Of a DNA stretch of 45,588 bases, positions 14,951 through 20,260 are shown in pieces. This DNA is from a virus (Duplodnaviria > Heunggongvirae > Uroviricota > Caudoviricetes): the IMG/VR virus record IMGVR_UViG_2531839665_000023; one strand, 5' to 3'. The notes below the pieces were generated by a model. The model ran no database searches. It was given only the letters and a program-made list of their open reading frames with translations, and had not been told where the DNA came from. Each line of letters opens with the position of its first letter. The first letter of the stretch is position 1. Both the position numbers and the translations under genes were made by a program.

Positions 14951-15234
14951 TGCTTTAAATAGGGTAATAGAGATGTTGAATCTCATTCCGGGATTCATGT
15001 TTGTTTACTTATTATTTATCGGGTGACTTTGCCTGATGTTTAAAATGTTTTCTTCCAGTACTATGTCCCTAGATACAATGAGTCTGCATATTACATTATT
15101 AGCAGAGCTATTACGGTCAAAGTACAGCATAAGCTTTTAAAGCCAATCAACCAGTCATCAAGACAGACGGGGTTATTCATGAAAACTCTCCATGTTTGAT
15201 TCGATGGGGCCTGAAATTAAAGCTTTAATATAGC

Positions 15235-15447
15235 TCATGAAAGGTAAACATTGGCAGCTGAAGGGCCACGCAGACCATTTATCCGGCAAAATTCCACGCG
15301 TAATCCGGTGGTAATTTCTTCTGCATCGCGGAGATTGAGCGCTGAAACATGAAGCTGGACATCGATACGACCATCGGATGGGGTGATAAGACCCTTGCCG
15401 CTTTTGCCGTCAAAGGTTTTGACAATTCCTGTCATTTTACGGGACAA
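15235..15447 (-). CDS. cspF: Cold-shock-domain protein, CspF/CspH-like
   Basis: 70 aa; CSD fold sequence [21 protein letters not shown]...[13 protein letters not shown]. Confidence 0.85.
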
Positions 15448-15747
15448 AAAAATTCCTTAATACTGATAACTGGGCGCACTATACACACGTTCCTGAAGAA
15501 AGCTATAGTTTTTTGATGGGGTTGAAGATGGCTGGATGTCTAAAATAAACATTGCTTCATATGTTCAACTATGCGTTAATGATTGCGTCGGTTTGAAGAA
15601 CAGACGATATACGAAGTAGTTTACTAAAGCAGTTCTCATTTCAGGTGTTATTCACTTATTCCTTCTTTGAGTCTCTCCAATTAAGTACGAAGTCGTTTCT
15701 GTTATACAAGCCATTTATGCCGAAAGGCTCAAGTTAAGGAATGTAGA

Positions 15748-15963
15748 ATGTCAAATAAAATGACTGGTTTAGTAAAATGGTTTAACGCTGATAAAGGTTT
15801 TGGCTTTATTTCTCCTGTTGATGGTAGTAAAGATGTGTTTGTGCATTTTTCTGCGATTCAGAATGATAATTTTCGAACCTTATTTGAAGGTCAAAAGGTT
15901 ACCTTCTCTGTAGAGAGTGGTGCTAAAGGTCCTGCAGCAGCAAATGTCATAATTACTGATTAA
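15748..15963 (+). CDS. cspB: Cold-shock protein, CspB-like
   Basis: 71 aa; [21 protein letters not shown] with RNP motifs; csp-type leader with GCCGAAAGGC box before the Shine-Dalgarno. Confidence 0.9.
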
Positions 15964-16245
15964 AATTCATAGTTTGTCTGTATACGATAACGAAGAAGGC
16001 TGATGCCTGAGTGGAGATACAGACTGAGTGGTGAATATTGGATCTCTTTAATAAATAGTAAGGAGGTCCAATACATGAAACAATGGCCAGCATATTTGGC
16101 AATAACTTAATCAGGAAAAGTATGCTAACCATTGTGGTGAAGTGCAGGTTTGCTGCATGAATAGTTTTACAGCAGAAGCTAACTGCTGGCATAGCAAAAC
16201 AAAGTGCGTAAGTGGATGACTCCCACAAAAAGTACCACAATATTA

Positions 16246-16268
16246 AACCCGCTCAGGCGGGTTTTTTA
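16246..16268 (+). terminator. Intrinsic terminator
   Basis: CCCGC-TCAG-GCGGG followed by TTTTTT. Confidence 0.7.
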
Positions 16269-16326
16269 TTATCTGCTTTAAATATGTTATTAAAATATAA
16301 AAAATACTTGTTACGAATAAAATCAA

Positions 16327-16497
16327 TCAAGCTACAGCTTTAAGATTTGTCTGGAATACTTTGTTGCAATGAGGGCAGATCAAAAGGGCACCTTTTTGTA
16401 CTCTTGAAAAACTGTGTTCTGACTCTTGGGTGCAGTTTGGGCAGGAACATTTAACGAGATAATTACGGCGTGATTTTGAGTCTTTACGTTCTGACAT
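16327..16497 (-). CDS. Small zinc-ribbon-like protein
   Basis: 56 aa from internal ATG (MSERKDSKSRRNYLVKCSCPNC...CPHCNK); AGGA upstream; palindrome CTGTATA-N8-TATACAG just 5' of it. Confidence 0.45.
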   Translation of the reverse strand: MSERKDSKSRRNYLVKCSCPNCTQESEHSFSRVQKGALLICPHCNKVFQTNLKAVA

Positions 16498-16715
16498 AGG
16501 CTTTTCCTGTATAAATGGCCGTATACAGTACACTAAATATGAAAACATATCTCGTATTATTATTTAATATATGATTTTCTTTTAAAATAATTACCCACAT
16601 TTTTAATGTGTCTGTTTTTTAGCGCCGTTGAGAACAACGTTTGCTATAAAAACTAACCCATAGACTCCGATCTTTTCAAACATATTGCACCATCTGTGTA
16701 CATCGGGGTGAGGAT

Positions 16716-16931
16716 ATGAAATCAATGGATAAGTTAACAACAGGTATCGCCTATGGCACATCGGCTGGTAATGCTGGTTTCTGGGCATTGCAGTTACTCG
16801 ATAAAGTAACTCCGTCACAGTGGGCTGCAATCGGTGTGCTGGGTAGTCTGGTTTTTGGCCTGCTGACGTATCTGACAAACCTTTATTTCAAGATTAAAGA
16901 AGACAAGCGTAAGGTTGCGAGAAGAGAGTAA
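16716..16931 (+). CDS. Class II pinholin, S21-like, with dual-start motif
   Basis: 71 aa; MKSMDKL dual start; two TM segments; strong resemblance to phage 21 S as recalled. Confidence 0.85.
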
Positions 16932-16935
16932 TCCA

Positions 16936-17695: not shown

Positions 17696-17808
17696 AGTCA
17701 CCTCTGTGTTTATCAGATTGACATCCTCCTCCCGCCAGTGCCCATCACTGGTGAGGTAAGATTTAACATATCCGGGGATTTGAAGCCGATAAATCCTGAT
17801 AAATATCC

Positions 17809-18342
17809 ATGAACGTAAAAATCAGATACAGCCTGTCGGCTGCTGTTCTGGCACTGATTGCCGCCAGTGCTCCTGCCCCTGACATTCTCGATCAGTTTCT
17901 GGATGAAAAAGAGGGGAATCACACCACTGCATACCGCGATGGCTCCGGCATATGGACCATCTGTCGGGGAGCAACGATGGTGGACGGTAAACCTGTTATT
18001 CCGGGAATAAAACTGTCGAAGGAAAAATGCGCCCAGGTTAACGCCATTGAGCGGGATAAGGCGCTGGCATGGGTGGAGCGCAATATAAAAGTTCCACTGA
18101 CCGAGCCACAGAAAGCCGGTATCGCGTCATTCTGTCCCTATAACATTGGCCCTGGTAAGTGTTTTCCGTCGACGTTTTATAAGCGGCTTAATGCCGGTGA
18201 TCGTAAAGGCGCATGCGAGGCGATTCGCTGGTGGATAAAGGACGGTGGACGTGATTGCCGCATTCGTTCAAATAATTGTTACGGTCAGGTTATTCGTCGT
18301 GACCAGGAGAGTGCATTAACCTGCTGGGGGATAGAACATTGA
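17809..18342 (+). CDS. SAR endolysin, T4-lysozyme-like
   Basis: 177 aa; N-terminal signal-anchor-release segment ([16 protein letters not shown]) then lysozyme catalytic region ([17 protein letters not shown]). Confidence 0.9.
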
Positions 18343-18836
18343 ATCAGATATTCACGGTGATTTTGCTCGTGTTGGTAGGATTTGTCGTAGGTAATGTCTG
18401 GAGCGACAGAGGATGGCAAAAAAAATGGGCGGAGCGTGATGCTGCCGAATTATCTCAAGAGGTAAATGTCCAATTTGCTGCTCGAATAATTGAACAGGGG
18501 CGAACTATATCCCGTGATGAGGCTGTTAAAGATGCACAACAGAAAGCCGCTGAAATTTCTGCCAGGGCTGCTGATCTGTCTGATAGTGTTAACCAGCTGC
18601 GTGCCGAAGCAACAAAATATGCCATACGCCTTGACGCAGCGCAGCATACCGCAAATCTTGCCGCTGCCGTCAGAGGCAAAACAACCAAAGCCGCCGAAGG
18701 AATGCTCACCAACATGCTCGGAGATATTGCAGCAGAAGCTCAGCTTTATGCTGAAATTGCTGACAAACGCTACATCGCAGGAGTGACTTGTCAACGGATT
18801 TATGAATCTTTAAGAGATAAAAAATATCAGATGTAG
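18339..18836 (+). CDS. Rz: Rz-like i-spanin
   Basis: 165 aa; N-terminal TM then coiled-coil-like region; ATGA overlap with the endolysin stop. Confidence 0.8.
18532..18786 (+). CDS. Rz1: Rz1-like o-spanin lipoprotein embedded in Rz (+1 frame)
   Basis: Signal peptide with lipobox LTSC then Pro-rich mature region ([14 protein letters not shown]); wholly inside Rz. Confidence 0.65.
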
Positions 18837-19199
18837 ATTAATATTAAATCGGATTATTTTTAGCGCTGAATGTGAAATTTAAATAAAAAGGACTCTTCCA
18901 TGAGTCAAAATCCTTGAAATCTTAAGGGTAAGATAAAAGGTCATTAGACAGAATGACACGTTTTATTAATAAATAAAGCTATTGTTTCATTCGTGTGTTT
19001 TTCTTTACAAAAGTAATCCTTGCTATGGTTGGTTAATCATGCGTTAATGGTGTTCTGGTTTGTTACAAAATTATCTGAAGCAGTCATTGTTATAATTTTA
19101 TTATTTGTACCTCTTGAGATCTCCTTGTTGGTTTTTCTCTCTGATATTTTTTTTCGGACCATTCTGCCCAAGGGCTAACTTCTTCAAAAGGTAATAATG

Positions 19200-19412
19200 A
19201 TGTCTAACAAAATGACTGGTTTAGTGAAATGGTTTAACCCTGAAAAAGGTTTTGGTTTCATCACGCCGAAAGATGGTAGCAAAGATGTGTTTGTCCATTT
19301 CTCAGTTATTCAGAGCAACGATTTCAAAACGTTAACTGAGAATCAGGAAGTCGAATTTGGTATTGAGAACGGACCTAAAGGCCCCGCGGCTGTTCATGTA
19401 GTGGCACTTTGA
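19200..19412 (+). CDS. cspI: Cold-shock protein, CspI-like
   Basis: 70 aa; [34 protein letters not shown]. Confidence 0.9.
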
Positions 19413-19616
19413 GGTAGAAAATATTACAAACCATATTCACTTTAGATGCCCGTGTTGCCATGGTTCTCAGTATAGAACATCATCTTTTGATGTTTCTGAC
19501 AGGAATCCTTTCGGGGCAAAATGTATCTTTTGTAAATCAATGATGATTACATTTGATAATATTTCACAATACTTAAATGTTAGCCGTCTGTCGTTAGATT
19601 TAAGAAAGTGAAAATG

Positions 19617-19641
19617 AAGGCTCCTTCGGGAGCTTTTTTGC
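19617..19641 (+). terminator. Intrinsic terminator
   Basis: GGCTCC-TTCG-GGAGC followed by TTTTTT. Confidence 0.75.
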
Positions 19642-19683
19642 TTAGTGTCTAGTCGATGGATACTCACATATTACGGTAACATT

Positions 19684-19914
19684 ATGAAAAAAATAATAGT
19701 TTTTTTTAACTCTGAACCAGCAATGGTAGTGCCAGTGATGACCGGAGTTAACACCATCATGCGTGAATATCCAAATGGCGAAACAACACACCTCACTGTA
19801 ATGGCTGCAGGGTTTCCATCTCTGACCGGAGATCATAAAGTCATTTATGTAGCAGCGGATCGACATGTAACTTCAGAAGAAATTCTGGAAGCAGCAATGA
19901 GACTCTTGAATTGA
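19684..19914 (+). CDS. Hypothetical small protein
   Basis: 76 aa from the ATG at 19684; AT-rich moron region. Confidence 0.45.
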   Translation: MKKIIVFFNSEPAMVVPVMTGVNTIMREYPNGETTHLTVMAAGFPSLTGDHKVIYVAADRHVTSEEILEAAMRLLN

Positions 19915-20086
19915 TTTGATTCTAATGCATTGATAATAAATGATAATCATCTTTATCTGTTTGTGTGAAATTTAGACCGTCGTATGTTGATTATTGCGAT
20001 GTTTCATCTTATCTTTTATACGTTTGCTCCATATAATTGACACTACTGTGTACTAGGAAAGTCATAACAGACTAAAAGAGGAAATG

Positions 20087-20260
20087 ATGAACATTGAAGA
20101 GTTAAAAACAAAAACAGAAGCAGATATTTCTGAATATATAACAAAAAAAATCATTGAGCTTAAGAAAAAGACCGGGAAAGAAGTTACCAGTATCCAGTTT
20201 ACTGCACGGGAAAAAATGACTGGTCTTGAAAGCTATGATATCAAGATTGATTTAATCTAG
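20087..20260 (+). CDS. gnsB: GnsA/GnsB-family protein
   Basis: 57 aa (below track cutoff); MNIEELKTKTEADISEYITKKIIELKKKTGKEVTSIQFTAREKMTGLESYDIKIDLI; AAGAGGAAA Shine-Dalgarno. Confidence 0.8.
   Translation: MNIEELKTKTEADISEYITKKIIELKKKTGKEVTSIQFTAREKMTGLESYDIKIDLI

Follow-up and report, generated by a model that had tools for sequence, protein, structure and literature searches.

The stretch analysed here (the window) comprises 45,588 nucleotides (nt) of DNA from a virus of the class Caudoviricetes (IMG/VR record IMGVR_UViG_2531839665_000023) and holds a full-length prophage. Region 14951-20260 of the window very probably represents the late segment, from the antiterminator gene Q to the terminase genes, of a Qin-type lambdoid prophage in which two AT-rich moron islands bracket the lysis cassette. 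The gene order, read from the RefSeq annotation of a near-identical copy in strain Ec1119 and from Escherichia coli K-12, starts with Q (ydfT) and continues with ynfS (minus strand), cspF (minus), cspB (plus), ynfU (minus) and the lysis genes essQ, ydfR, rrrQ and rzpQ/rzoQ, which are followed by cspI, ynfQ, ynfR, ynfN, gnsB and the terminase genes. An initial annotation of the window had placed cspF (minus strand), cspB, cspI, gnsB and several small open reading frames (ORFs) between Q and terminase, interleaved with the lysis genes in a layout mirroring that of Qin. Pfam matches and identity to K-12 bore out these assignments, the accessory genes lay around essQ-ydfR-rrrQ-rzpQ/rzoQ (16716-18836), and a synteny comparison with Qin returned the same order at 91-96% nucleotide identity. 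Membership of the csp and gns families was likewise borne out by sequence comparison, with matches to the Pfam CSD and GnsAB_toxin models. The region was 99.9% identical to its counterparts in E. coli chromosomes, and 1582 of 5426 complete E. coli genomes (~29%) carried it, presence being defined as at least 80% coverage of 14951-20260 in one place.

The moron status proposed for the accessory genes is supported by three tests, namely base composition, modularity and, chiefly at cspB and cspI-ynfQ, promoter/terminator signals. Island 1 (~14886-16703), with ynfS, cspF, cspB and ynfU, has a G+C content (GC) of 34-39% over most of its length, and island 2 (~18837-20939, plus strand), with cspI-ynfQ-(ynfR), ynfN, gnsB and a 68-amino-acid (aa) ORF, one of 31-39%. 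Measured in blocks, GC was 31-39% at ~14850-16650 and ~18750-20550, compared with 49-59% in Q and the terminase genes and 43-53% in the lysis genes. The right edge of island 1 was set where homology to PhiR40_1 and mEp460_ev081 resumes (16704/16707), and the boundaries of island 2 were taken from PhiR40_1, to which homology is back at 20940. PhiR40_1 has the holin, ydfR and lysozyme genes in common with the window (89-92% identity), carries other cargo between Q and the holin gene, and contains no csp or gns gene, after Rz or elsewhere. In mEp460_ev081, island 2 is present and island 1 is absent, and phage 2H10 carries both. Consistent with this, the best 80 loci sampled from IMG/VR, every one of which encodes a 100% identical GnsB, had CspI/YnfQ/YnfN beside GnsB in 78 cases and lysis genes in 68-77, compared with CspF/CspB/YnfU in only 34-38; 26 loci with a complete 5-kb upstream flank lacked CspF/CspB/YnfU. 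GnsB was rejected as a probe for diverse phages, since 80 loci with identical GnsB show only how common the E. coli module is. Together, these comparisons indicate that islands 1 and 2 come and go independently among phages with a common lysis cassette, as morons do.

The initial annotation had also given each csp gene its own csp-type leader and terminator, and the morons their own promoters; these claims held in part. The Rfam cspA thermoregulator model (RF01766, gathering score 78) scored above gathering at cspB and cspI only, with 157.4 bits at 15587-16026 and 116.8 bits at 19053-19458, respectively. Measured from the start of the model match to the ATG, the leaders are 161 nt (cspB) and 147 nt (cspI) long, in agreement with the published 160 nt and 145 nt (PMC6719143). 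Upstream of them lie the plus-strand promoter motifs TTGCTT (15552-15557), 17-nt spacer and GTTAAT (15575-15580) for cspB, and TTGCTA (19020-19025), 17-nt spacer and GTTAAT (19043-19048) for cspI, each motif ending 5-7 nt ahead of the mRNA start that Rfam defines. Over 110 nt, the promoter region of cspB matches K-12 at every base, and that of cspI differs from K-12 at 3 of 110 bases, all outside the hexamers; the chromosomal gene cspG shares a motif of the TTGCT(T/A)-17-GTTAAT type. With K-12-conserved motifs and Rfam-defined 5′ ends, the case for own promoters at cspB and cspI is strong.

The cspB transcription unit (15552-16026, plus strand) consists of the promoter, the leader and the coding sequence (15748-15963; Pfam CSD (PF00313) 8.4e-32). 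On its 3′ side we found an imperfect hairpin and then a strong intrinsic terminator with a GC-rich stem and T6 (16245-16264, plus strand), which lies between the convergent cspB and ynfU and would insulate essQ against cspB transcription. An Rfam Trp_leader match at 16181-16270 (22 bits, gathering score 41, E 0.65) was discarded, because it merely reflects this terminator hairpin. The gene cspI (19200-19412, plus strand; PF00313 8.9e-31) belongs to a dicistron (19020-19639, plus strand) made up of promoter, leader, cspI, ynfQ and terminator. The ynfQ gene (19423-19611, plus strand; Pfam YmcF-like 1.4e-32) starts with ATT 10 nt past the cspI stop codon, which is overlapped by a GAGG Shine-Dalgarno sequence; because of this start codon, ynfQ had been missed by the ORF listing and by the initial annotation. 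There is no terminator between the two genes, so that cspI does not have one of its own, and the first one downstream is a strong hairpin with U6 at ~19619-19639. A remnant of ynfR (19614-19652) with 12 codons, compared with 21 in K-12, overlaps this hairpin.

The arrangement of cspI and ynfQ recurs beyond the window. Among 80 species-level Enterobacteriaceae loci, the ymcF/ynfQ start codon was ATT in 53, ATC in 4 and ATG in 23, and in most of them a csp gene stops ~10 nt ahead of it. The csp-ymcF/ynfQ pair therefore looks like a conserved dicistron whose second start codon is mostly non-canonical; next to no published work on YmcF was found in the literature searched. In Citrobacter pasteurii, C. 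youngae and Yokenella, the csp-ymcF/ynfQ cassette adjoins phage-type lysis genes, and in two of these, C. pasteurii and Yokenella, lysis and terminase genes once more flank it.

The third cold-shock gene, cspF (15235-15447, minus strand, TTG start; PF00313 5.6e-22), differs from the other two in its signals. All three genes encode a single cold-shock domain of ~70 aa; CspB and CspI carry aromatic RNP1 (KGFGFI) and RNP2 (VFVHF) motifs, whereas those of CspF are degenerate (KGKGLI and VQLHV), in keeping with the published absence of aromatic RNP motifs from CspF/CspH (PMC6719143). The NCBIfam CspF model assigned the protein to its subfamily (157 bits, cut-off 111). The idea that cspF has a cspA-type leader was rejected: a search of both strands at E<=1 gave no RF01766 match there, and the 140 nt between the cspF start and the 5′ end of the cspB mRNA leave no room for one; the cspF leader is short. 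A TATAGT hexamer ~35 nt upstream of the start codon, conserved with cspH, is the likely candidate for the cspF promoter, and the sole terminator found 3′ of cspF is a bidirectional hairpin past ynfS (14948-14925, minus strand). The other genes of island 1 encode the small protein YnfS (15091-15180, minus strand; Pfam YnfS 1e-21; annotated in Ec1119 and K-12) and the zinc-ribbon small protein YnfU (16327-16497, minus strand; Pfam YnfU 2.5e-31; NCBIfam NF038384). For cspF, ynfS, ynfU and ynfN, the promoter and terminator evidence is at the level of motifs.

In island 2, ynfN (19684-19914, plus strand; phrog_3425, 1e-55) encodes 76 aa, compared with 51 aa annotated in K-12, and is followed by the gnsB unit (20032-20344, plus strand), in which a perfect candidate -10 hexamer, TATAAT (20032-20037), conserved in K-12, precedes the coding sequence (20087-20260) and a terminator (20323-20344). 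GnsB has 57 aa, matches Pfam PF08178 GnsAB_toxin over its full length (2.2e-33) and is 93% identical to K-12 GnsB and 63% identical to GnsA. The terminators at 16245-16264, ~19619-19639 and 20323-20344 separate moron transcription from the holin and packaging genes.

Next to this region, the late promoter pR′ is split by an insertion sequence (IS). Q (13001-13753, plus strand; Pfam PF03589 1.3e-52) encodes a protein of the Q-lambda family (1.4e-36 to Q-lambda, PDB 7UBM) with an extra CxxCxGxG zinc-finger insert. The pR′ core (13785-13813, plus strand) consists of a -35 hexamer, TTGCAT (13785-13790), a 17-nt spacer and a -10 hexamer, TAAAAT (13808-13813). It is followed at 13818-14874 (plus strand) by IS903B, a 1057-bp element of the IS5 family with 18-bp terminal inverted repeats (GGCTTTGTTGAATAAATC at both ends) and a transposase ORF at 13850-14818 (Pfam DDE_Tnp_1 and DDE_Tnp_1_5), which is 100% identical to IS903B copies on plasmids and is flanked by a 9-bp target duplication, AAAATTCTT, at 13809-13817 and 14875-14883. 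The displaced part of pR′ (14886-14952, plus strand) carries the sigma-dependent pause/Q-loading element AACGATGGG (14886-14894) and a tR′-like terminator with its stem at 14925-14948 and a T run, a bidirectional hairpin ~40 nt downstream of the pR′ elements. With the IS removed, the sequence reads TTGCAT-17 nt-TAAAAT-TCTTTC-AACGATGGG, in register with lambda pR′, TTGACT-17-TAAATT-TGACTC-AACGATGGG; the motif is uninterrupted in K-12 Qin, Ec1119 and phage 2H10, and the insertion site is empty in Ec1119, 2H10 and K-12. None of the 5426 complete E. coli genomes has IS903B at the pR′ junction, and the insertion is private to the source of the window and the only strain-specific feature of the region. 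The closest complete genome, strain JB2 (NZ_CP182203.1), which is 100% identical at the left end of the prophage, has another IS (IS5-like, ISKpn26 family) inside its equivalent of 14951-20260, and the late regions of Qin-type prophages may be recurrent IS targets.

The position of IS903B bears on how the late genes would be expressed. In the lambda system, the binding site of Q lies between the -35 and -10 hexamers, and Q loads onto RNA polymerase held by sigma at the AACGAT pause element. In the window, IS903B lies 4 nt past the -10 hexamer and 2 nt ahead of the AACGAT element, so that the Q-loading site, tR′ and all late genes are now 1066 bp away from pR′ and the Q-binding region. With IS903B in this position, late transcription that depends on Q should be lost or uncoupled, whereas the moron units, whose promoters and terminators are at least 700 bp from IS903B, should be untouched and still expressible. 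The block to late transcription that the initial annotation had attributed to an IS903 insertion is thus supported by the anatomy of the split promoter.

These features allow us to propose how the islands would be expressed. In a repressed lysogen, cspB and cspI would be transcribed from their own sigma-70 promoters, judging by the near-identical genes of K-12, and after a temperature downshift their mRNAs would be stabilised and translated into RNA-chaperone Csp proteins. K-12 CspB and CspI are cold-induced (PMC4956666). The ynfQ gene would be co-transcribed with cspI, with which the cold induction of K-12 YnfR fits (PMC6001520). During long-term stationary phase of K-12, cspB, cspF, cspI, ynfN and ydfK rise together, and K-12 without cspB or cspI has lower competitive survival in that phase (PMC7406224). 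Overproduced GnsB would raise the unsaturated fatty acid content; according to a preprint that cites and extends Sugai 2001 (bioRxiv 10.1101/2024.03.27.586906), overexpressed GnsA/GnsB gives more unsaturated fatty acid and suppresses cold-sensitive defects. During lytic growth, RNA polymerase modified by Q at pR′ would read through all terminators of the moron region, and in the window copy IS903B would cut off late transcription while the moron units keep expressing. The suggested host-adaptive role rests on the K-12 literature (PMC4956666, PMC7406224, PMC6001520 and bioRxiv 10.1101/2024.03.27.586906).

Several points weigh against this proposal. Moron expression from a repressed prophage is reported for the K-12 homologues and would be a prediction for the strain of the window. 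CspF is reported to be barely expressed and has no known function (PMC4956666), and the GnsB phenotype is known from overexpression. A generic sigma-70 scan of the region was uninformative, with 14 sites compared with 16.1 expected from shuffles; it misses the csp promoters because GTTAAT fails the rule of an A at position 2, and since it did no better than shuffles, the promoters of cspF, ynfU, ynfN and gnsB, read from motifs, are guesses. Residual late transcription through IS903B is possible and would lack Q modification. Indeed, the insertion might not silence the late genes at all, if read-through starting at pR′ or at the promoter of the transposase gene, or else a hybrid promoter formed at the right IS end, were sufficient. 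Like pR′, the transposase gene points towards the late genes, and the duplicated AAAATTCTT recreates a weak -10-like hexamer, CAAAAT, at the right junction. However, the candidate -35 for this hexamer (AAATCT) is poor, and with the Q-binding region left behind, 1066 bp from AACGAT, polymerase would then meet the terminator at 14925-14948 with no means of Q loading. We consider such sufficiency quite unlikely.

A different objection concerns whom the csp genes serve. They could chiefly benefit the phage, being made also from the Q-antiterminated late transcript, with Csp chaperones or antiterminators aiding the translation of late mRNA, or read-through, during lytic growth in the cold. CspA-family proteins can serve as transcription antiterminators, five of the nine accessory genes (cspB, cspI, ynfQ, ynfN and gnsB) are co-oriented with late transcription, and the plaque-forming or induced phages 2H10, PhiR63_1, HannyBb and Tritos retain the islands. 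Against this, the host-type promoters and thermosensor leaders of cspB and cspI are complete, three genes (cspF, ynfS and ynfU) run opposite to the late operon, the islands are missing from many phages that share the lysis cassette, and K-12 expresses the homologues from a prophage incapable of lytic growth (PMC7406224). A chiefly phage-serving function is thus improbable in our judgement, and phage-serving and host-serving roles of the csp genes are not mutually exclusive. An even smaller chance attaches to a reading in which gnsB encodes an addiction toxin that, paired with an antitoxin, stabilises the prophage, as the Pfam name GnsAB_toxin and the RefSeq product name 'GnsA/GnsB family addiction module toxin' would have it. 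The partner proposed at the gnsA locus is YmcE, yet YnfN, in the equivalent place, is unrelated to it (13 of 65 aligned residues identical), and no YmcE match was found in Qin-type loci; the pairing of GnsB as a toxin with its neighbour is therefore unsupported. In addition, gnsB has its own terminator and is separated from ynfN by a 170-nt gap, and the published gns phenotypes are lipid-related suppression with no killing (bioRxiv 10.1101/2024.03.27.586906). We retain, as by far the most probable reading, that the islands are morons that would be expressed independently of Q. Their presence is not new, as cspB, cspF, cspI, ynfQ and gnsB are textbook K-12 Qin annotation and isolated phages with both islands are already in GenBank. 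In the window, nature offers a clean case: a full-length prophage of the Qin type whose single visible late-region lesion is IS903B in pR′, and which would be a convenient natural control separating moron expression from Q-dependent late transcription.

The lysis cassette between the islands (16716-18836, plus strand) was recognised by Pfam (P21 holin, DUF1327, Phage_lysozyme and DUF2514), PHROGs and annotation. It comprises the holin gene essQ (16716-16931, plus strand), a long ydfR-like gene (16936-17487, plus strand; 183 aa, phrog_2091), the lysozyme gene rrrQ (17809-18342, plus strand) and rzpQ (18339-18836, plus strand) with the embedded rzoQ (18532-18786); an antisense ORF of 86 aa (17435-17695) belongs to phrog_2572, of unknown function. 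The late-region ORFs are as long as their annotated counterparts in Ec1119. A 657-bp stretch (17142-17798) lengthens the ydfR-like ORF and is present too in phage 2H10 and Ec1119. Downstream of gnsB, the 68-aa ORF (20556-20762, phrog_657) is conserved and situated ahead of the genes for the small and large terminase subunits (21315-23908).

Outside the late region, the prophage differs from K-12 Qin. The integrase gene at its left end adjoins yjjG, which is not the K-12 Qin site, the early region is CPS-53/e14-like with an immunity region of the ymfK/ymfT/ymfL type, and only one 123-bp match to K-12 dicA-intQ was found; the right end (stf, tfa, pin and ydfK) is Qin-like. Because the integration site and the early/immunity region differ, the prophage is best described as a mosaic with a Qin-type late region and not as Qin itself. 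The head and tail-shaft module (20980-34174) encodes a DUF1441 small terminase, a gpA-type large terminase and a ClpP-like protease/capsid fusion. The right end also holds an intact ydfK (45355-45588, minus strand; 'cold shock protein YdfK', 77 aa), one more gene with a cold-shock name. Rfam matches above gathering score were obtained in the early region (8451-8639, plus strand) for isrK (64 bits) and C4 antisense RNA (82 bits), which suggests a P1/P7-type C4/isrK antirepressor control module there, and in the tail-fibre assembly region (44055-44253, plus strand) for IS009 (221 bits).

Among the closest known systems is K-12 Qin, with which the late genes are identical in order and orientation. 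Nucleotide identity is 95.7% over 14875-17141 and 91.0% over 17799-20397, and the proteins are 100% (CspF), 97% (CspB), 99% (CspI), 95% (YnfQ) and 93% (GnsB) identical. The intervening 17142-17798 is not homologous, K-12 having ~92 bp between the flanking alignment blocks. K-12 Qin also lacks the terminase-to-tail genes, sits at ydfJ/rspB and has its own early region with dicA/dicB/dicF, relBE and hokD, whereas the window has the 76-aa ynfN, the truncated ynfR and the split pR′. The closest isolated relative is Escherichia phage 2H10 (Glaedevirus gv2H10, NC_049950), grouped with PhiR63_1, HannyBb and Tritos as relatives carrying both islands. It is 99.6% identical to the window over 14875-20661 and has Q, both islands, the long ydfR-like gene, the early region and the tail-fibre end in common with it; in contrast, its pR′ carries no IS and it has no match to 20980-34174, although the flanking segments match, a module swap that is ordinary lambdoid mosaicism. 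The linear ends of the 2H10 record fall at 20661/20662, within the 68-aa ORF, and could be cos or an arbitrary assembly break.

The control region resembles the lambda Q-pR′-6S RNA-tR′ system in its Q-lambda-family protein, in the register of -35, 17-nt spacer, -10, 6 nt and AACGATGGG, and in having a terminator nearby. It differs in that the terminator of the window lies ~40-65 nt from the start, compared with a lambda 6S RNA of ~194 nt, and in that pR′ is split by IS903B. As with the lambdoid morons bor and lom, accessory genes fill the Q-to-S and Rz-to-cos intervals, although the cargo genes are not the same.

A further counterpart is the chromosomal locus cspH-cspG-ymcF-ymcE-gnsA, to which three segments of the window align collinearly at 73-76% nucleotide identity: 15239-15862 (cspF, the intergenic region and the 5′ end of cspB), 19200-19559 (cspI-ynfQ) and 20069-20247 (gnsB). 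Both have a divergent csp pair, a csp-ymcF-type dicistron with an ATT start and a downstream gns gene. The chromosomal locus differs in having no lysis genes between its csp genes, in having ymcE in place of the unrelated ynfN, and in its fixed position beside yccM across Escherichia species. The promoter and leader of cspG are collinear with those of cspB (83% identity over 94% of the length), whereas the sequence downstream of cspG lines up with cspI-ynfQ (97% coverage), not with what lies 3′ of cspB, so that cspG in its flanks looks like a hybrid of cspB (5′) and cspI (3′). In the window, cspB and cspI form direct repeats 3.45 kb apart, 83% identical over the first 115 nt, and the cspG arrangement is as expected if cspB and cspI had recombined and the lysis cassette had been deleted. 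A 782-nt chimera, in which the sequence upstream of cspB was fused to the 3′ end of cspI plus ynfQ, used as a query for recent recombinants, found none at 80% or more query coverage in one place in the 5426 complete E. coli genomes; the event, if it is the origin of the cspG locus, is ancient. We tentatively suggest that this core-genome locus of Escherichia may have begun as the late region of a Qin-type phage and persist as its fossil, an idea that we keep as a hypothesis because no recent recombinant was found and ymcE is unrelated to ynfN. If it is true, paralogous csp morons flanking the lysis genes would provide a built-in route to a harmless, permanently retained cold-shock island, and the arrival of IS903B in pR′ would have grounded a phage of this kind by a second route, independent of the first. 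The conserved csp-ymcF/ynfQ dicistron, with its mostly AUU start codon across Enterobacteriaceae, and the collinearity of cspH-cspG-ymcF-gnsA with the two islands may interest researchers of cold shock or prophage domestication.

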